Shown here piece after piece: positions 2,531-10,559 of a stretch of 37,457 nt of DNA; position 1 is the stretch's first letter, and each line of letters starts with the position of its first letter. The notes below the pieces were generated by a model that saw only the letters and a program-made list of their open reading frames with translations, searched no databases and had not been told where the DNA came from. The DNA is taken from the sequence record DRR723986_5784, one strand, 5' to 3'. A program made the translations under genes and the position numbers.

Positions 2531-4417
2531 ATGTCCTCCGACGCCTCCTCGGCATCCGCCAAAGAAGTAGAAGTAGTCAGTGGTATTACCGTCCGTCTCG
2601 CGGGAGACTCCGGTGACGGTATGCAGCTACTGGGTACCCAGCTTACCAATACATCCGCACTTAGCGGCAACGACGTAGCCACGTTCCCGGACTTCCCGGC
2701 TGAGATTCGTGCCCCTCGCGGCACGCGCGCCGGCGTCAGTGGCTTCCAGGTTCAATTCGCTTCCCACGAAGTGCACACACCTGGCGACACTCTCGATGCG
2801 CTGGTTGCAATGAATCCTGCTGCGTTGGTCACCAACTTGGATGACCTGCGGAAGGGTGGTTTGTTGATCGTCAACGAAGACAGCTTTGAGGCAAAAGACC
2901 TGAAGCTTGCCGCGCTGACAACCAATCCGCTTGAAGAACCGTGGACTGAGAACTACCGCCTCGTCAAAGTACCGATGACGAAGCTTACCCGCGAAGCCGT
3001 CAAGGAGCACGGACTCAGCGTCAAGGAGTCCGACCGCTGCCGTAACTTCTTCGCAATGGGCTTGGTCTATTGGTTGTATGGCCGCAGCATGGAAGCCACC
3101 CTGCGGTTTATCGACAACAAGTTCGGCAAGCTGCCGGCGGTCCAAAAAGCAAACGAAAGTGCGCTGCGAGCAGGCTGGGCATTTGGCGAAACCACAGAGC
3201 TACTTGGTGCATCCTATCAAGTCGAAAAAGCCGAGCTTCCCGCTGGCAAGTACCGTAACATCATGGGTAATCAGGCATTGGCCTGGGGACTCATGACGGC
3301 GTCGAAGCTCAGCGGCAAGGAGCTGTTCTATGGCTCTTACCCAATCACGCCGGCCAGCGATATCTTGCATGAACTTTGCAAGTACAAGAACTATGGCGTT
3401 TGCACCGTCCAAGCGGAAGACGAGATTGCCGCCGTCTGTGCCGCAATCGGCGCTGCTTACGGTGGATCGATGGCTGTCACAACCAGTAGCGGTCCGGGTA
3501 TCGCGTTGAAGGCCGAAGCCATGGGGCTGGCCGTGATGATTGAGCTACCACTGCTTGTCATCGACGTCCAGCGCGGCGGACCGAGCACCGGCTTGCCAAC
3601 CAAGACCGAACAAGCCGACCTGTTGCAATTGCTATTCGGACGAAACGGCGAAGCTCCCGTTCCCGTTCTGGCGGCCAAGAGTCCTGGCGACTGCTTTGCA
3701 ACGGCCATCGAGGCCTGGCGAATCGCGACCCAGTTTATGGTGCCTGTTGTGATTCTATCCGACGGATACATTGCAAATGGCTCAGAACCTTGGGCGATCC
3801 CAGACGTGGACCAAATCCCGCCGATCAAGGTCGAACACCCGACTGCGTCAAGCGACGGTTCTGAATTCCTGCCTTACAGCCGCAACGAAGATCTTGCTCG
3901 TCCGTGGGCAATTCCTGGTACGCCAGAATTGATGCACCGTGTCGGCGGCCTGGAGAAACAAGACGGGACGGGCAACGTCAGCTACGATCCGGAAAACCAC
4001 GAGAAGATGGTTCACCTGCGTGCCGAAAAAGTCGCTCGGGTTGCCACTGCCATCCCACCACAAGAGGTCTTCGGTCCAGAATCCGGCGATCTACTTGTCC
4101 TCTCTTGGGGCGGCACATACGGAACCTGCCACACGGCTGTTTCGCGAGCCATCGAAGGCGGGGCGCAGGTCGCTCACTGTCACCTCCGGCACATGAATCC
4201 GTTCCCATCAAACCTGGGCCAGATTTTGAGCAACTACAAGAATGTTCTGATTCCGGAATTGAACATGGGTCAGTTGCGAATGCTGATCCGCGACAAGTTC
4301 TTGGTCGATGCCATTGGGTTCAACAAAGTGCAAGGGAAACCATTCTCGGTTTCTGAGTTGGTCGAAAAGATCTCCGAGCACGCTTCAACCCGCCCAGAAC
4401 TAAAGTCTGCCGTCTAG
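2531..4417 (+). CDS. korA: 2-oxoacid:ferredoxin oxidoreductase alpha subunit (gamma-alpha fusion)
   Basis: AGDSGDG N-terminal motif, YPITP, EDEIAA, TSSGPG, QRGGPSTGLPT; substrate specificity inferred. Confidence 0.92.
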   Translation: MSSDASSASAKEVEVVSGITVRLAGDSGDGMQLLGTQLTNTSALSGNDVATFPDFPAEIRAPRGTRAGVSGFQVQFASHEVHTPGDTLDALVAMNPAALVTNLDDLRKGGLLIVNEDSFEAKDLKLAALTTNPLEEPWTENYRLVKVPMTKLTREAVKEHGLSVKESDRCRNFFAMGLVYWLYGRSMEATLRFIDNKFGKLPAVQKANESALRAGWAFGETTELLGASYQVEKAELPAGKYRNIMGNQALAWGLMTASKLSGKELFYGSYPITPASDILHELCKYKNYGVCTVQAEDEIAAVCAAIGAAYGGSMAVTTSSGPGIALKAEAMGLAVMIELPLLVIDVQRGGPSTGLPTKTEQADLLQLLFGRNGEAPVPVLAAKSPGDCFATAIEAWRIATQFMVPVVILSDGYIANGSEPWAIPDVDQIPPIKVEHPTASSDGSEFLPYSRNEDLARPWAIPGTPELMHRVGGLEKQDGTGNVSYDPENHEKMVHLRAEKVARVATAIPPQEVFGPESGDLLVLSWGGTYGTCHTAVSRAIEGGAQVAHCHLRHMNPFPSNLGQILSNYKNVLIPELNMGQLRMLIRDKFLVDAIGFNKVQGKPFSVSELVEKISEHASTRPELKSAV

Positions 4418-4509: not shown

Positions 4510-5526
4510 ATGAGCACTTCACTTCCAGTCCTAAAAGCAACTGACTTCGCCAGCGATCAAGATATCCGGTGGTGCCCAGGCTGTGGCGATTACTCGATCC
4601 TCGCCCAGATGAAGAAAATGCTTCCGAGCCTTGGGCTCCCTTTGGAAGAAATCGTCTTCATTTCGGGTATCGGATGCTCCAGTCGATTTCCGTACTATAT
4701 GAACACATACGGAATCCACAGCATCCACGGTCGCGCGCCTGCTTTCGCAACCGGACTTCGTGTTGCTCGGCCCGACCTGAAGGTCTTCGTCATCACCGGT
4801 GACGGAGACTCCCTGAGTATCGGTGGTAACCACTTCGTGCACCTGTTGCGGCGAAACGTCGATGTAACGCTCGTGCTATTCAACAACCGAATCTACGGTC
4901 TGACGAAGGGCCAGTACTCACCAACAAGCCCCGAGGGCCAAGTCACCAAGAGTACGCCGATGGGATCGGTCGATCACCCATTGAATCCAATCTCAATTGC
5001 ACTTGGTGCCGAAGCTGGATTCATCGCTCGCAGCGTTGATTCAAACATCAAGCACCTCGGTGAGACGCTTTACCGGGCCGCTCAACACCGCGGAACATCG
5101 GTTGTCGAAGTTTATCAGAATTGCAATGTCTTCAATGATGGCGCATTCAGTTACGCTCAAGACAAGGCTACACGATCGGACACGACCGTTGAGCTTCAGC
5201 ATGGCAAGCCTATGATTTTTGGCAAGAACAGCGACAAGGGAATTCGCCTCAATGGATTCTCTCCAGAGGTCGTTGACCTGAACAACGGTGGCGTCAGCCA
5301 GGACGATTTACTCTTCCACGACGAACAAGCTGATTCAACGCTCGTTCACATCCTTGCCAAGATGCGACACCCCGACTTCCCTGAGCCGATCGGGGTATTC
5401 CGTGCCGTCGAAGGTGAAATCTTCGAAGATGGAGTGCGCGGCCAAGTTGACGCGGCCATTGAGAAGAAGGGGGCAGGGGACCTCAACAAGTTGTTCTCCA
5501 GCGGCGACACCTGGAACGTTGCGTAA
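4510..5526 (+). CDS. korB: 2-oxoacid:ferredoxin oxidoreductase beta subunit
   Basis: WCPGCGD, SGIGCSSR, HGRA, TPP-binding GDGD...NN, YGLTKGQYSPT; follows the alpha subunit. Confidence 0.93.
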   Translation: MSTSLPVLKATDFASDQDIRWCPGCGDYSILAQMKKMLPSLGLPLEEIVFISGIGCSSRFPYYMNTYGIHSIHGRAPAFATGLRVARPDLKVFVITGDGDSLSIGGNHFVHLLRRNVDVTLVLFNNRIYGLTKGQYSPTSPEGQVTKSTPMGSVDHPLNPISIALGAEAGFIARSVDSNIKHLGETLYRAAQHRGTSVVEVYQNCNVFNDGAFSYAQDKATRSDTTVELQHGKPMIFGKNSDKGIRLNGFSPEVVDLNNGGVSQDDLLFHDEQADSTLVHILAKMRHPDFPEPIGVFRAVEGEIFEDGVRGQVDAAIEKKGAGDLNKLFSSGDTWNVA

Positions 5527-5711: not shown

Positions 5712-7823
5712 CTATTCTGCTTCCGGGACTTGCATGATCACATGCATGGAGCTGGAATTCTCGGGAAAGCTGATCTTCGACGCGATAAATTCGCGATTAT
5801 CATCTTCGAATTCGCCGTCAGCATCGCGGATTTCAGGCCACCGCGAGAAGACTTCTCCGACCTTGCGCAGTTCGCTCGATCTCTTCGGTCTCTTGGAATC
5901 GAAAATCACATTCTCGTGATCATCGACCAGGACCAAACGGCTCTTCGTCCCGATCATTTGCAGTTCGGGGCCGATCAAATTGCTGATCTCGGATTCGGCC
6001 AAGACGACTCCAAATGGCTCTTCGGTCTCGGAATCGAACACCGGGACTCCGAACACAAACCGAACCTGGCCAGCGGTGGCGCGATCCAATTCGATTCTGC
6101 ATTCCCCAGGAAACTGCTCCAAGACCATCTTGTGAAACACGGTCGCCGAACCACGACGCAATCGACTCTGCGGGAGCGAACGCACATTGGAAATGTCCGT
6201 CAAGCTGCGTTCGACCCGAACAATCTCGTGAATCTTTTCATTCTCGATTCGAGCGTAACTCAGTCCTGTGAGATTTGTTCGAGTCTTCACGAGCGCCATC
6301 AGGATGGTCGACATACGCTCCCGCCAGGTGACAAAGTCCGCTTCGCTGTTGCCAGTTTCCGAAACCAGACCTTGAATCGGTGGAAGCTCGACCATGAACT
6401 GGGCCGTTGCTGCCAATTGCCGAAACTGGACGCACAACCGCGATCGCAAATCCAGGCTGGCCATCTTCATGCTGTCATATTCATTCTGGCGCTTGTGCTT
6501 GCCCGCTATCCAAGCCTCTACGTCGGCAGCCAGTTCGCCGGCGGAGGCGTGCCTTGCATAGCGATTCTTCGCCATTGCACGCATACAAATGTCTTCCAAT
6601 TCCTTTGGAACCGCCGAATTCAACTCTCTCGGCCGAGGAGCATCCGCGCTTGCAATCTTCTCCAGAAAATCCGTTACTTTGACGGAACCACCAAGCGATT
6701 TGTTGCTCTTTTCGTGAGGAGCGTAGCCGGTCAGTATCGCAAACAGAATCGCGCCCAATCCATAAACGTCCGTTTTGTCGTCCAAGACGTCCATGTCGCC
6801 TGCAGCCTGTTCGGGTGACATGTACAGCGGCGTGCCTACAACATCACCATCAATTGTCTGGTCAGCCGCGATGCTGTCATCGATACTGCCCGAAAGCGCC
6901 ATCCGCGTCGCCAGCTCGCCTTCGGAATCAAGTTTGGCAAGGCCCCAGTCCAGCACAAGAACTTGTCCAAAGTTATCGAGCGCAATATTCTCCGGCTTTA
7001 AGTCGCGGTGAATCACACCGCGTGAATGTGCAAACGCTATCGCCTGACAGACGTCCAGAAATACGGTCAGTAGCCGGTGAAGCTGTATCGGGTCACGCCG
7101 AACTTCCTCGCGTGCATGGTACTCCTCAATCGCATCGCGCAGTGTCTGCTTGCCGAGAAATCGCATCGCGTAAAAGGGCATGCCCGTTTCGGGGTTAACG
7201 CCACTCATGTAAAGCGGCACAACATTTGGATGCTCCAGGTGGCCTGTGATTTCGGCCTCACGCTGGAACCGTCTCCAGACCTTGGCTGAATCGGCTACAC
7301 CGGGCCGCATTTCCTTGAGCGCTACGTTTCGCTTTAGTTTTTCGTCGCGAGCGAGCCAGACTGTCCCCAAACCACCTTCGCCAATTTTCTTGATCAGGGT
7401 AAAGCGGCTGACAGCGGTTCGATTTTCTTCCGGGGCTAAATCATCTTCACCAACACTGCCACCGGACGCAGAAGGCGAATAATACATCGTGCCGGCCTCA
7501 GCAGCACTGCGCGCGGTCGACGAGCCTGAGCCGCCGGTTGCTGCTGTGTTGCTGATCGCGACAGAGTTACTTTGCGCGACTGCAATCGAGTCCTTCATTC
7601 GCTCACGCGCTGCCTTGCTTAGACTCAGCGATGACTCCGAGAGCCGGGCATCGTCTTGAGTGACGCTAAGAACAGATTTTTGAATCATCGCTGAGAGACT
7701 GGCAAACGACTGAGCTTCCGGAGCACTTCTGCCAAGTTTGTCGTCGAGATCAATTCTCTCGTCCGCTGAAAGGTCGCCGCTGAGGGATTTGGAAATCAGC
7801 TCGCTAAGCTTTAGGTCATTCAC
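5712..7823 (-). CDS. Ser/Thr protein kinase with N-terminal anti-sigma-like domain and C-terminal Cache-like domain
   Basis: GEGGLG, VALK, HRDLKPEN, DWGLAK, GTPLYMSPEQ, DVYGLG all intact; GTG start overlaps the ECF stop by 8 nt; accessory domain calls are by eye. Confidence 0.9.
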   Translation of the reverse strand: MNDLKLSELISKSLSGDLSADERIDLDDKLGRSAPEAQSFASLSAMIQKSVLSVTQDDARLSESSLSLSKAARERMKDSIAVAQSNSVAISNTAATGGSGSSTARSAAEAGTMYYSPSASGGSVGEDDLAPEENRTAVSRFTLIKKIGEGGLGTVWLARDEKLKRNVALKEMRPGVADSAKVWRRFQREAEITGHLEHPNVVPLYMSGVNPETGMPFYAMRFLGKQTLRDAIEEYHAREEVRRDPIQLHRLLTVFLDVCQAIAFAHSRGVIHRDLKPENIALDNFGQVLVLDWGLAKLDSEGELATRMALSGSIDDSIAADQTIDGDVVGTPLYMSPEQAAGDMDVLDDKTDVYGLGAILFAILTGYAPHEKSNKSLGGSVKVTDFLEKIASADAPRPRELNSAVPKELEDICMRAMAKNRYARHASAGELAADVEAWIAGKHKRQNEYDSMKMASLDLRSRLCVQFRQLAATAQFMVELPPIQGLVSETGNSEADFVTWRERMSTILMALVKTRTNLTGLSYARIENEKIHEIVRVERSLTDISNVRSLPQSRLRRGSATVFHKMVLEQFPGECRIELDRATAGQVRFVFGVPVFDSETEEPFGVVLAESEISNLIGPELQMIGTKSRLVLVDDHENVIFDSKRPKRSSELRKVGEVFSRWPEIRDADGEFEDDNREFIASKISFPENSSSMHVIMQVPEAE

Positions 7824-8436
7824 TTGCTGGAGCCCCCTGCTCGTTCAGAAACCATTTTGATCCAACACATTTTGCAAGCCCTAGCCGAGCGCGATGAAGC
7901 CTAACCCACATGTTGGACGGCGTAATGCCAAGTGCCTTACAGATTTCATCGCTTTCCATCTCTTCCATGACACTTAGCGTGAAAACGTCCGCCTGCCCCT
8001 GCGGCAAGCGGGTCAAGCACTCCTGAACGACTCCCCACAATTCCTGGGCCTCGAACTGCGTGTCAGGTCCGATTTGCGGCAAGCTGCCAGATTTCCAACG
8101 ACCGTTTTCATCGAACAACAGGGCCGTCGGATCGTATTCATCTTCACCAAGATTTTGAGTCTTTCGTCGCGTTCGGGCGCGAACAAAATCGATAATCTTG
8201 CGTTTGAGAATTCCCATTAGCCAACCACGCTGCGACCCCTTGCCAGCGAATTGACCGAAGTGCTTTAGGGCGGACAGAAACGTCTCTTGGACTACTTCTT
8301 CAGCCGCATTCGAATCGCGAAGACGACTCACGGCGTAGCGGTAGAGGTAATCGCCGTACGCATCGACCCACTCAGATGGATCGAGCGCCTCATCACGCAG
8401 CTTCTGCGTCGTGGTTGGCTCGTGTGAAATCGACAC
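7816..8436 (-). CDS. ECF sigma factor (TIGR02943 / Neisseria sigmaE-like)
   Basis: Region 2 YLYRYA...AEEVVQETF...WLMGILKRKIID, FDENGRW linker, region 4 LP...VFTL...EIC..LGITPSNMWVRLHRAR..L..C...KWF; the ORF track starts at 8478, but GTG 8436 is preferred because a candidate promoter overlaps 8470-8495. Confidence 0.9.
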   Translation of the reverse strand: MSISHEPTTTQKLRDEALDPSEWVDAYGDYLYRYAVSRLRDSNAAEEVVQETFLSALKHFGQFAGKGSQRGWLMGILKRKIIDFVRARTRRKTQNLGEDEYDPTALLFDENGRWKSGSLPQIGPDTQFEAQELWGVVQECLTRLPQGQADVFTLSVMEEMESDEICKALGITPSNMWVRLHRARLGLAKCVGSKWFLNEQGAPASE

Positions 8437-8469
8437 TAATAGGACGTCCAAAGAGTGCGGAGTTTGGAG

Positions 8470-8495
8470 TAAGACCACTCCAATTATAACCTTAT
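8470..8495 (-). promoter_or_regulatory. Candidate autoregulatory ECF promoter
   Basis: Minus strand ATAAGGTT-ataattggagtg-GTCTTA; resembles the GTAAGGTT...CGTCT motif recalled for Neisseria sigmaE. Confidence 0.4.
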
Positions 8496-8540: not shown

Positions 8541-9386
8541 CTACTTTTGCGAGTTAAGATTCCAGTCGTAGTCGAGGAACGTCACTCTCGCTTTCCCACT
8601 TTTCAGGAGTGCACGGGCCCCCTCGGGAGCGAACCGACTGCAGAAGGCAAGCCGTTCCGCCTGAGTCTTACCAAAGTCCTCTTCGAACCAGTCCAAGATC
8701 GGTGAAAGCTGGACTGACTTGCGGTTGTTGTCCCAGCGAAACTTTCTGTTATCCGCGAAGAAGTCTACCGCGTTTTCATTCAACTGCTTATCCAATTTCT
8801 CTGCAGTGTATGCCTCAGCAAGCAATCGCGGGCAGCCAATCGAGGCACAAACGATAGCGAAGTGGATTCTCGGTTCGCCGGCTTTTCGCAGTATTTTGTG
8901 CTCGATGTCTTCCAGTGAGAGTTGGCTTCCGGCGACCCGCAGCTTCAGATTCTTCCAAATGTTATAACCCCAGAGCTTTGCCGTATGGTTGCGAATACTG
9001 CTGGTTGGGTACTCGCGTAGAATTCCCCAAACGGTCACTGCGTTGTAAGCGTTGATCCAGTAGGCAAGCTGCACTTCCCGCGGAGCCCCCTTGGTGGTGA
9101 CCGTGGATAGCCTATTCAGGTAGGCTTCTAGACTTTGGCGATCCGCTGACGACGCTTTCCAGGCTTTGTAGTTCACAAGCCCCTTCGAGTCGACGTACTT
9201 CTTTAGCAGCCGGTCCCAAGAATCATGCGAGATGCTCTTCATCGGCACGCGATTCTTAGCACTGACTTCTTTGCCGACGAGTACATCTGCGGCAAATGCC
9301 CGTCCAGTCGGCACAGTCGAGAACGCAACCGCCGCCAAAATCCAAGTTGCAAAAATACCGATTGGAGTCGCTCGCATCGTATGCAT
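8541..9386 (-). CDS. Secreted DUF547 domain protein
   Basis: WDRLLKKYV..G.VNY, LAYWINAYNA, IEHKILR, EPRIHFAIVCASIGCP, DYDWNLN; signal peptide follows Met at 9386/9377, so the ORF-track start 9500 looks too long. Confidence 0.88.
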   Translation of the reverse strand: MHTMRATPIGIFATWILAAVAFSTVPTGRAFAADVLVGKEVSAKNRVPMKSISHDSWDRLLKKYVDSKGLVNYKAWKASSADRQSLEAYLNRLSTVTTKGAPREVQLAYWINAYNAVTVWGILREYPTSSIRNHTAKLWGYNIWKNLKLRVAGSQLSLEDIEHKILRKAGEPRIHFAIVCASIGCPRLLAEAYTAEKLDKQLNENAVDFFADNRKFRWDNNRKSVQLSPILDWFEEDFGKTQAERLAFCSRFAPEGARALLKSGKARVTFLDYDWNLNSQK

Positions 9387-9683
9387 TCCGTAGCTCTGGA
9401 TAAACAGACTGTAAAACCGACCTTTATGGATCACGTCACGAGCACTCTTGACGCAGCCATACCCAGTATCCTTACCGGCGATAACGATTTCTTCGCACAA
9501 TGAGCCGAAATTCGAAAGCGCAGTCGGCAGTCCCCCACCGGCCCCGAAACGCCAGGGACGCGCCGCGAATAACAGCCTAGGGAGTAACGCTGAAGACTGG
9601 CTTCTGAAACACCAGTCATCAAGGGGCGGTCCGGCCTGTTAGGTGTTATGGTAATGGCTTAAAATACGGTAGTAAAATCAGGC

Positions 9684-10559
9684 ATGATGGCGACTGCCAA
9701 TCATCGCGGACCCAATCAATCAGCCCTATCGAGGCCTCGCCCAATGAAACGCTTGGGGGCAGTATCATACCTGAACACAAAACCGCTGATCCAAGGCTTA
9801 CAGCAGCGTCTGGATCAGGCGGGGGGCTGGAAGATCAGCTTCGACCTTCCAAGCCGTCTTTCGCAGAGCCTTCAAGCGGGAGATTTGGACATCGCGCTCA
9901 TCCCAAGCTTTGAATTCCTGAGGCTCGGCAACGCGCAAATCATCTCCGACGCTTGTATCGGTTGCTGTGGACCAGTTCGCAGTGTCAAAGTCCTGTTCAA
10001 CAAGCCACCTCAGGAAGTCCGAACACTGGCCCTAGACGAGGGGTCTCGCACCAGCGTGGCTCTCGCTCAAATTCTGCTCCGAAAGCGATACGGCCTAGAA
10101 CCAGTTACGCTTCAGTTACCGATCGACGCTGACTTTCGAACATCGTCGGCCGACGCGGTGCTGGTAATTGGCGACCGCGCGATGAACGTGCCCGATCAAG
10201 ACTATCGCCGAGTCTGGGACTTAGGGGAGATGTGGGTTCAAACGACCGGCCTGCCGTTCGTTTTCGCGATGTGGGTCTGCAAAACCGACAGCTCGATCGC
10301 GGGCAACCTTGAATTTGCCTTGACCGAAGCCCTTCAGGCCTCACGAGACGAGGGCCTTTCCGCGGCGGAGCAACTCGCCGAACAGAACCACGCTGCTTAC
10401 GACATCTCGCGTGACGACTGCCTCCGCTACTTTACCGAACAATTGCATTTCACGCTCGGGGACAAGCAGCGGCAAGGGCTAGAACTCTTCCGAGAACTGG
10501 CTGTCCAGTACAACTTGCTGCCCCTCCCATCCGACACGCTCTCACTGCAAATATCATGA
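9684..10559 (+). CDS. mqnA: Chorismate dehydratase, futalosine pathway
   Basis: LGAVSYLNTKPL, SRTSVAL, LVIGDRAM, DLGEMW...TGLPFVFAMW; ATGA overlap with mqnC; true start may be 9744. Confidence 0.92.
   Translation: MMATANHRGPNQSALSRPRPMKRLGAVSYLNTKPLIQGLQQRLDQAGGWKISFDLPSRLSQSLQAGDLDIALIPSFEFLRLGNAQIISDACIGCCGPVRSVKVLFNKPPQEVRTLALDEGSRTSVALAQILLRKRYGLEPVTLQLPIDADFRTSSADAVLVIGDRAMNVPDQDYRRVWDLGEMWVQTTGLPFVFAMWVCKTDSSIAGNLEFALTEALQASRDEGLSAAEQLAEQNHAAYDISRDDCLRYFTEQLHFTLGDKQRQGLELFRELAVQYNLLPLPSDTLSLQIS

Follow-up and report, generated by a model that had tools for sequence, protein, structure and literature searches.

Sigma factors of the extracytoplasmic function (ECF) type and Hanks-type kinases are two of the main signalling systems of bacteria, and wiring between them is known experimentally for few cases, namely EcfP/PknT, EcfK/PknS and the action of PknB on RshA and RseA. 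A locus in the stretch DRR723986_5784 (37,457 nucleotides (nt); hereafter the window, in which all coordinates without a locus name are positions) raises the question of how a kinase may control the sigma factor encoded beside it, and makes it testable whether it does so via an inhibitor of the sigma, via the sigma itself or via both. Here an ECF sigma gene overlaps the gene of a protein of 703 amino acids (aa) that joins a sensor, a kinase and a putative sigma-binding domain in one compact, predicted soluble three-domain protein. We found that the N-terminal ~86 aa of this protein descend, as judged from profile alignments, from small MseR-type zinc anti-sigma factors. We propose that the two genes may form a sigma/anti-sigma module controlled by phosphorylation, in which the kinase might act on the sigma as well as on the anti-sigma domain, and we give this proposal about an even chance of being right.

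A sigma factor gene overlapping the gene of a three-domain kinase

The features on which the argument rests are listed below (ZAS, zinc anti-sigma factor; AF2, AlphaFold2).

7816-8478, minus strand: ECF sigma gene (220 aa in its longest open reading frame; TIGR02943 type)
5712-7823, minus strand: gene of the anti-sigma-domain/Hanks kinase/dCache fusion (703 aa, predicted soluble, GTG start at 7823-7821)
7816-7823, minus strand: 8-nt overlap GTGAATGA, which holds the GTG that starts the kinase and the TGA that ends the ECF gene
7566-7823, minus strand: putative zinc-less class I anti-sigma domain, aa 1-86 (homology to MseR-type ZAS; four predicted helices)
7419-7565, minus strand: Ser/Ala/Gly/Thr-rich variable linker, aa 87-135 (length and sequence differ among the aligned orthologues)
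6549-7400, minus strand: Hanks-type Ser/Thr kinase domain, aa 142-425 (Pfam PF00069, E 8.8e-36; K170, D274, N279, D292, T331)
5715-6488, minus strand: dCache (double Cache) ligand-binding domain, aa 446-703 (by AF2 and Foldseek; predicted cytoplasmic)

The ECF protein scored 165.6 bits on TIGR02943, above the curated NCBIfam cut-off of 162.2, and Pfam placed Sigma70_r2 at aa 38-105 and Sigma70_r4_2 at aa 151-198. Its open reading frame has alternative starts at TTG 8451 and GTG 8436. An earlier reading of this DNA from its letters (the sequence-only reading) had given the locus as 5712-8436; the 5712 end stands, but 8436 is an internal GTG of an ECF frame that reaches 8478. The same reading had described an 8-nt overlap of the ECF stop with the kinase GTG, and this is indeed present at 7816-7823: the 3' end of the ECF gene reads ...AGT GAA TGA, and the kinase GTG lies within GTGAATGA, an arrangement that we read as probable translational coupling.

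Relationship of the N-terminal domain to MseR-type anti-sigma factors

Relatives were taken from a scan of one genome per species, which gave 80 loci; a word-based homologue search with aa 1-140 had just two matches, and the genome-derived loci were used for the orthologue set. Thirty-eight loci (L001-L037 and L053) match the window protein from residue 1-2 through to its C-terminal end and are called orthologues here. They come from metagenome-assembled genomes (MAGs) that bear the labels Pirellulaceae, Aureliella, Mariniblastus, Planctomycetaceae and Fuerstiella. Residues 1-80 of the window protein contain 17 Ser, 1 Thr and neither Cys nor His, which agrees with the earlier count, and AF2 predicted four helices in the domain at residues 3-15, 20-32, 35-63 and 70-85. 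Alignment of the 38 N-termini gave the helix motifs SELISKSLSGxL, xxEQxxLxxxL and RxFAxLSxxIQDS, followed by a variable loop and LSxxAKERMRxSxR.

A profile built from these 38 N-termini was searched against 1.84 billion representative proteins and matched 139 of them at E <= 1e-3. The top of the match list consists of orthologues and their fragments, and the bottom consists of free-standing proteins of 82-105 aa; the short relatives of the zinc type were matched at E 1e-6 to 1e-3. We retrieved 41 of the short matches, of which 39 carry an N-terminal Cys together with H-x3-C-x2-C (C4, H30, C34 and C37). The other two, P0084 and P0117, lack these residues and were left out, so that the ZAS set comprises 39 proteins. 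Pfam zf-HC2 was matched by 33 of them, and one is labelled as a zf-HC2 protein of a Methylophilaceae MAG. The four positions are also the ligands of MseR, an experimentally shown anti-sigmaE (excerpt of PMC2893595).

Comparison of the 38 fusion N-termini with the 39 ZAS proteins by hhalign gave 99.1% and E 1.5e-18 over 86 columns (aa 1-86), a value that is not independent evidence because the comparison set was itself picked by the domain profile. The alignment with anti-sigma factors that the sequence-only reading had made by eye is supported, and so is the loss of the zinc ligands, which it had located at K29, S33 and E36/A37: in the profile-profile alignment C4, H30, C34 and C37 of the zinc family fall on D3, K29, S33 and A37 of the window protein, which adds D3 to the replaced positions. 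Cys or His occurs at these four columns with frequencies of 0, 0.21, 0.11 and 0.03 among the 38 orthologues, and none of the orthologues retains a complete ligand set. When the N-termini were compared singly with Pfam, 11 of 38 matched zf-HC2 (best E 1e-4) and one matched RskA_N; beyond zf-HC2, no other Pfam family was matched by more than two of them. Foldseek with the AF2 model of the domain placed ECF anti-sigma domains (RsiW, RskA, RslA, MucA and ChrR) at all of ranks 1-12.

The sigma gene accompanies the N-terminal domain

In 38 species-level genomes, from Pirellulaceae to Planctomycetaceae (Fuerstiella), the domain is conserved with 34-70% identity to the copy in the window, and the alignment has invariant and near-invariant positions. 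Upstream DNA is available for 36 of the orthologous loci; in every one of these a sigma orthologue comes immediately before the kinase, and in 29 the two genes overlap, by 4-17 nt. By contrast, a sigma gene adjoins none of 17 paralogous kinases (L038-L052, L054 and L055) that lack the anti-sigma N-terminus. These paralogues have another N-terminus, which is readable in 16 of the 17 (L055 is partly masked), and several of them share the C-terminal domain of the window protein. The 36 of 36 against 0 of 17 suggests that the N-terminus and the sigma gene travel together; both the adjacency and the domain, whose conservation in relatives had been left as a point to check, are conserved.

The kinases of L038-L054 have a different conserved N-terminal module (DLAFA...W[ST]xxG...L.DHLV), no sigma gene nearby and, in some, a dCache-like C-terminus. 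In the orthologues L035 and L037 the reading frame of the kinase breaks off early, at open frames 430 and 536 aa long, which may reflect frameshifts, pseudogenes or assembly errors.

An intact kinase and a dCache domain in a soluble protein

The kinase is the sole Pfam domain found in the 703-aa protein (Pkinase, aa 142-425), close to the aa 141-440 given by the sequence-only reading, and all motifs of a Hanks kinase are present: GxGxxG at 148-153, VALK with K170, HRD at 272-274, DWG in place of DFG at 292-294 and SPE in place of APE at 336-338. Seventeen residues are invariant in all 35 full-length orthologues (G148, G150, G153, K170, E189, H272, R273, D274, K276, N279, D292, W293, G294, P337, E338, D352 and R424), and T331 is Thr in 34 of the 35 and Ser in one. 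The kinase is intact and, from its catalytic residues, predicted to be active.

The C-terminal 258 aa (446-703) had no Pfam match by sequence. AF2 modelled them with a predicted local distance difference test score (pLDDT) of 92.2 and a predicted template-modelling score of 0.88, and Foldseek matched the model to 2p7j (E 4.2e-10, template-modelling score 0.73), then to the ligand-binding domains of 3lid, PctD, TlpA, TlpQ and McpU. In all, 150 matches reached E <= 0.001, with ligand-binding domains of the dCache type at their head. The sensor domain claimed for the fusion therefore corresponds to a dCache fold, with its pair of PAS-like modules and a long helix at the N-terminal side. The highest 19-residue Kyte-Doolittle mean in the window protein is 1.34, inside the kinase domain, and the highest in 34 orthologues is at most 1.68; no transmembrane segment was found by hydropathy in the window protein. 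The lack of a hydrophobic segment rules out a membrane-anchored receptor kinase and suggests that the fusion protein is soluble, and without membrane helices the dCache domain would have to be cytoplasmic and to sense a cytoplasmic ligand.

Origin of the fusion and its natural intermediates

A sample of 301 Planctomycetota genomes was searched with the domain and sigma profiles. The domain profile matched three genomes at E <= 1e-5, and the sigma profile found 25 loci in 23 genomes at E <= 1e-30. Fourteen of the 25 sigma genes have a small ZAS directly downstream, three (L087, L088 and L090) have a divergent ZAS, one has the kinase fusion, and for the remaining seven no partner was recognised within 1.5 kb. 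Most of these Planctomycetota relatives are thus paired with a small zinc anti-sigma, as the sequence-only reading had described for such ECF sigmas, and on this ground we regard the fusion as derived. A sample of 301 genomes from the taxonomic family of genome G001 gave domain matches at E <= 1e-5 in 35, of which 20 match strongly within open frames 673-859 aa long.

A maximum-likelihood tree built from 61 sigmas placed every one of the 37 kinase-linked sigmas in a single 40-member clade with support 99/95. Its remaining three members are the sigmas with divergent ZAS partners, and the clade is nested among ZAS-linked sigmas. The tree omits L018 and L036, which lack upstream DNA, L035, whose sigma is fragmentary, and L089, which holds the gene already present as L013. 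The topology is compatible with a single origin of the kinase-linked sigmas.

Forms with fewer parts also exist. A zinc-less stand-alone domain follows a sigma of the same family directly in L122 (137 aa) and L123 (109 aa), and three cluster representatives of 412-445 aa (P0047, P0053 and P0056) join the zinc-less domain directly to dCache, with no kinase. These five proteins suggest that zinc loss, sensor fusion and presence of the kinase are separable. The sequence-only reading had proposed that a fused kinase replaced the zinc switch; zinc loss and the kinase are both there, but replacement as one step does not fit the kinase-less zinc-less forms. The zinc form, the zinc-less stand-alone form and the kinase-less domain-plus-dCache form provide natural comparators for the fusion.

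The stand-alone domains (L122:1743-2156, plus strand; L123:1952-2281, minus strand) start MND..., and the L122 locus is divergent from a menaquinone-biosynthesis (VitK2_biosynth-like) gene, as is that of the window. A truncated kinase fusion behind the L122 domain was considered and rejected, as no kinase-like frame occurs in the remaining 285 nt, where the contig ends. Another protein, P0081 (714 aa), has three tandem zinc-less anti-sigma-like helix pairs, then a hydrophobic stretch and a long Pro/Thr-rich region.

Residues that change with the presence of the kinase

The residues singled out by the comparisons in this section are encoded at the following positions.

8125-8127, minus strand: sigma Thr118 codon, in the sigma2-sigma4 linker (DP-T-ALLFD); candidate phospho-acceptor
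7674-7676, minus strand: anti-sigma-domain Ser50 codon, end of helix 3; candidate phospho-acceptor
7587-7589, minus strand: anti-sigma-domain Ser79 codon; candidate phospho-acceptor
7779-7781, minus strand: anti-sigma-domain Ser15 codon; candidate phospho-acceptor

For the domain we compared the 38 kinase-fused proteins, the 39 ZAS relatives and the five kinase-less zinc-less proteins. Serine content is 14.9% in the kinase-fused domains versus 8.7% in the ZAS relatives. Ser7, 11, 13, 19 and 69 are equally conserved in the kinase-less ZAS proteins, and Ser44 tracks zinc loss. Position 50 is Ser or Thr in 34/38 kinase-fused, 7/39 ZAS and 0/5 kinase-less zinc-less domains, and the corresponding counts are 33/38, 8/39 and 1/5 for position 79 and 26/38, 0/39 and 1/5 for position 15, where 36 of the 39 ZAS proteins have Asp or Glu. 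Of the serines of the domain, then, Ser50, Ser79 and Ser15 alone vary with whether a kinase is present in these alignments. The idea that the Ser-rich domain is a phospho-acceptor keeps its footing for these three residues, and not for the five that are ancestral or for the one that is linked to zinc loss.

In the sigma, seven positions are Ser or Thr in at least 70% of the kinase-linked proteins; 118 and 169 are clearly kinase-specific and 51 is weakly so (0.78 vs 0.31). Among the 37 kinase-linked sigmas, 16 have Thr and 15 have Ser as residue 118, whereas none of 16 ZAS-linked sigmas has either (Glu in six, Asp in three); in the nearest kinase-less relatives (L087, L088, L090, L091, L092, L122 and L123) it is Glu. 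Because residue 118 is Ser or Thr along with the kinase and Glu in kinase-less relatives, the sigma itself is likely a substrate of the kinase. The sequence-only reading had set this system apart from direct sigma phosphorylation, a contrast that the 31 of 37 against 0 of 16 weakens.

Position 15 of the domain also changes together with sigma residue 169. Of the 14 pairs with an acidic position 15, 12 have Arg or Lys as residue 169, compared with 3 of the 40 pairs in which position 15 is non-acidic, a covariation that fits a contact between helix 1 and sigma4 kept in the fusions.

The sigma2.2 motif of the window sigma, AAEEVVQE, keeps Glu60 and Glu61, contains no Ser or Thr and is identical in ZAS-linked relatives. 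Activation through sigma2.2 as in EcfP is ruled out by the retained acidic motif. In sigma4, Cys154, Cys180 and Cys204 are kept in 37, 36 and 37 of the 37 kinase-linked sigmas and in 14 of the 16 ZAS-linked ones; the 50-residue spacing of Cys154 and Cys204 is presumably that of SigK. A redox-sensing disulphide pair occurs in ECF18/ECF19 sigmas such as SigK (excerpt of PMC7826278).

A proposed mechanism and its alternatives

The residue patterns suggest that phosphorylation switches this sigma on, and we propose the following mechanism. The zinc-free MseR-type domain (aa 1-86) would hold the ECF sigma in a 1:1 complex, as we infer from its homology, from the strict adjacency with translational coupling and from the covariation. 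The cytoplasmic dCache domain would bind an intracellular small molecule and set the activity of the Hanks kinase, a coupling that we also infer, the models bearing on the folds only. The kinase would phosphorylate residues within its own tethered complex, the best candidates being Thr118 of the sigma and Ser50, Ser79 and Ser15 of the domain; a phosphate on Thr118 would put back the negative charge that Glu supplies in kinase-less relatives. The sigma would be released and made competent for RNA polymerase, and the fusion protein would act as anti-sigma and sigma kinase at once. A bolder form of the proposal, which we put forward tentatively and would not rate as probable, is a two-key switch: upon binding of the cytoplasmic ligand to dCache the domain (Ser50, Ser79 and Ser15) and the sigma linker (Thr118, as an evolved substitute for Glu) would both be phosphorylated, the sigma would come free and would acquire only then the charge required for RNA polymerase, and, by extension, the kinase-linked ECF groups of Planctomycetota that have been described as devoid of anti-sigmas would hide them inside their kinases.

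Several observations weigh against a phosphorylation-controlled sigma/anti-sigma module. The window's own N-terminus had no relevant Pfam match (E <= 10), and a profile search of PDB sequences returned no anti-sigma, only four unrelated matches at E >= 0.45. The AF2 model of the domain is of moderate confidence (pLDDT 71.6). Of the profile and fold comparisons suggested earlier for aa 1-80, hhalign was positive, but the anti-sigma ranking in Foldseek came with a best E of 0.36 and no match at E <= 0.001. The anti-sigma activity of MseR requires Cys34, and Cys4 and Cys37 are important for it too (excerpt of PMC2893595), and since these cysteines matter, a domain without all four ligands may bind otherwise or not at all. 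The window sigma2.2 motif is not of the uncharged, Thr-containing ECF43 type, and six of the 37 kinase-linked sigmas have neither Ser nor Thr at 118 (Glu in three, Ala in two, Asp in one). P0047, P0053 and P0056 indicate that a sensor/anti-sigma protein can dispense with the kinase. Finally, the Ser/Thr signatures possibly lie within a single clade, in which shared descent could account for them with few independent events; as a single ancestral event may underlie all of them, we take them as leads rather than as proof.

Four other explanations were weighed against our proposal. In the strict form favoured by the sequence-only reading, the kinase would phosphorylate only its own anti-sigma domain or linker, affinity would fall and unmodified sigma would be freed. 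The serine enrichment of the domain over its ZAS relatives, the conservation of Ser50, Ser79 and Ser15 only where the kinase is present, and the way Ser15 stands in for an Asp or Glu whose partner in relatives is a basic residue of the sigma are all in keeping with this, as is the in-trans precedent of the zinc anti-sigmas RshA and RseA, on which PknB acts (excerpts of PMC8999054 and PMC13147305). It leaves the kinase-linked change from Glu to Thr or Ser at sigma 118 unexplained, however, and six of the serines to which it appeals are either as conserved in kinase-less ZAS proteins (Ser7, 11, 13, 19 and 69) or track zinc loss (Ser44). We consider it unlikely.

A slightly smaller probability goes to an allosteric anti-sigma, in which ligand-bound dCache would free the sigma by a conformational change and the kinase would be a branching output acting on other substrates. 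Such a protein would resemble the kinase-less P0047, P0053 and P0056 and the stand-alone zinc-less domains that lie beside the same sigma family in L122 and L123, and the paralogous kinase-dCache proteins with another N-terminus and no sigma gene suggest that the kinase-dCache module works alone. Yet two metagenome scans for the genes around P0047, P0053 and P0056 came back empty, and an allosteric switch gives no account of why Ser50, Ser79 and sigma 118 change along with the presence of the kinase.

It is doubtful, and somewhat less likely again, that the N-terminal domain serves for docking only, being non-inhibitory and recruiting the sigma for direct phosphorylation as in EcfP/PknT and EcfK/PknS. 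The zinc ligands that MseR requires for inhibition are all gone, the change from acidic to Ser/Thr at sigma 118 has a parallel in EcfK Thr106 of the same linker region (excerpt of PMC13147305), and kinase-linked ECF groups have been published as lacking anti-sigma factors (excerpt of PMC7826278). Against docking alone, all four helices, helix 4 included, are conserved over the 38 orthologues, position 15 co-varies with sigma 169 as in inhibitory ZAS pairs, and inhibitory zinc-free class I domains are known and are among the fold matches (RskA 4nqw, MucA 6in7 and RseA 1or7); moreover, the acidic sigma2.2 motif is intact, unlike that of EcfP.

That the domain is a non-functional remnant, its gene order merely inherited with the operon and its kinase not acting on the sigma, would agree with the loss of all zinc ligands, the lack of a Pfam match for the window's own N-terminus and the moderate confidence of the structural model, but is very improbable given a domain conserved over 38 species-level genomes at 34-70% identity with invariant positions, a sigma adjacency of 36/36, mostly with overlapping codons, and the covariation between domain and sigma.

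Our proposal, that phosphorylation within a tethered complex controls the sigma, makes predictions at the level of single residues, namely Thr118 of the sigma and Ser15, Ser50 and Ser79 of the domain. These, together with the evolutionary series, are what the present analysis adds.

Neighbouring genes

One further gene lies directly upstream of the sigma gene.

8541-9500, minus strand: DUF547 protein gene (Pfam PF04784, E 2.1e-26)

It is a possible member of the operon or regulon. A DUF547 gene lies near the kinase fusion in L001, L002, L003 and L037, and with only 4 of 38 fusion loci it is ruled out as a constant operon partner. In the genomes G100 and G075, too, the small ZAS partner of a related sigma has a DUF547 homologue (53% identity) in front of it. 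In G100 (L084:5401-8169; L085 of G075 is alike) a sigma 57% identical to that of the window is divergent from an operon of DUF547, a small MseR-type ZAS (85 aa) and a secreted Cytochrome_P460-family protein.

A count of gapped 5-mer/4-mer pairs in the upstream regions (310 nt each) of 36 sigma genes yielded no shared ECF promoter; because the best pair occurs in only 6 of the 36 regions, we claim none. The flanking genes of the window belong to ordinary metabolism: the open reading frames at 2531-4417 and 4510-5526 (plus strand) resemble by eye two subunits of a 2-oxoacid:ferredoxin oxidoreductase, and that at 9684-10559 (plus strand) encodes a VitK2_biosynth (menaquinone biosynthesis) protein (Pfam E 2.3e-53).

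Comparison with known systems

The closest known counterpart is MseR (NMB2145) with sigmaE of Neisseria meningitidis, together with the small zf-HC2 ZAS proteins, which belong to the same TIGR02943 sigma family. The 86 aa of the window protein are homologous to them over the whole length, including helix 4 (LSxxAReRI), and occupy the same place directly after the sigma gene; the C4/H30/C34/C37 numbering of MseR equals that of the 39 ZAS relatives (excerpt of PMC2893595). The window domain differs in that the four ligands are replaced (D3, K29, S33 and A37), and in that it forms the head of a 703-aa kinase/dCache protein, whereas the ZAS are free proteins of 82-105 aa.

Fusions of an anti-sigma domain with a kinase also occur in a zinc form. 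Four of six long zf-HC2-bearing frames examined in G001 and G002 are zinc anti-sigma/Pkinase fusions (L112, L113, L115 and L117), and three of the four adjoin a Pfam-confirmed sigma-70 gene (loci L118-L121 examined). These proteins have 712-1163 aa and retain H-x3-C-x2-C, some with TPR or thioredoxin tails. The anti-sigma/kinase architecture thus seems to be common in Planctomycetota. The sigmas paired with the zinc fusions are of another type, in which region 2 alone matches Pfam, whereas that of the window is of the TIGR02943 type, and because the window fusion derives from the MseR-type anti-sigma that belongs to its own family of sigmas, it seems to have arisen separately. We found no description of an anti-sigma-domain/Hanks-kinase fusion in the literature searched, which included excerpts of PMC7826278, PMC8999054 and PMC13147305; the group descriptions that accompany PMC7826278 may hold a prior mention.

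The dCache domains of chemoreceptors and histidine kinases (2p7j, 3lid, PctD, TlpQ and McpU) have the same fold as the modelled C-terminus of the window protein. They are extracytoplasmic and lie between two membrane helices, whereas the window protein has no membrane segment.

In Mycobacterium tuberculosis, phosphorylation of zinc anti-sigmas by PknB releases SigH and SigE (excerpt of PMC8999054), and the principle, a kinase acting on a class I anti-sigma (RshA for SigH, RseA for SigE) to free the sigma, would be the same here (excerpts of PMC8999054 and PMC13147305). PknB, however, is a protein of its own, a pleiotropic kinase of the membrane that works in trans on anti-sigmas that keep their zinc, whereas the window encodes one dedicated polypeptide with its own sensor.

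The ECF43 pairs EcfP/PknT of Vibrio parahaemolyticus and EcfK/PknS of Xanthomonas citri resemble the window in that a Hanks kinase gene adjoins the ECF gene. PknS phosphorylates EcfK at Thr106 in the sigma linker, where kinase-free sigmas have Asp or Glu (excerpt of PMC13147305), and the kinase-linked sigmas of the window's family have a similar sequence pattern at 118, mostly with Ser or Thr in the linker where the nearest kinase-free relatives are acidic. The window sigma is of another ECF family, and its AAEEVVQE stands where ECF43 sigma2.2 has QTTA or STTA (excerpts of PMC13147305 and PMC8999054). PknS is a transmembrane kinase (excerpt of PMC13147305), whereas the window kinase is predicted to be soluble and carries an anti-sigma domain. 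Kinase-linked ECF groups are typically without a co-encoded anti-sigma (excerpt of PMC7826278); the window kinase carries a homologue of one at its own N-terminus, which suggests that such 'anti-sigma-less' kinase-linked groups are worth re-examining for anti-sigma domains at the N-termini of their kinases.

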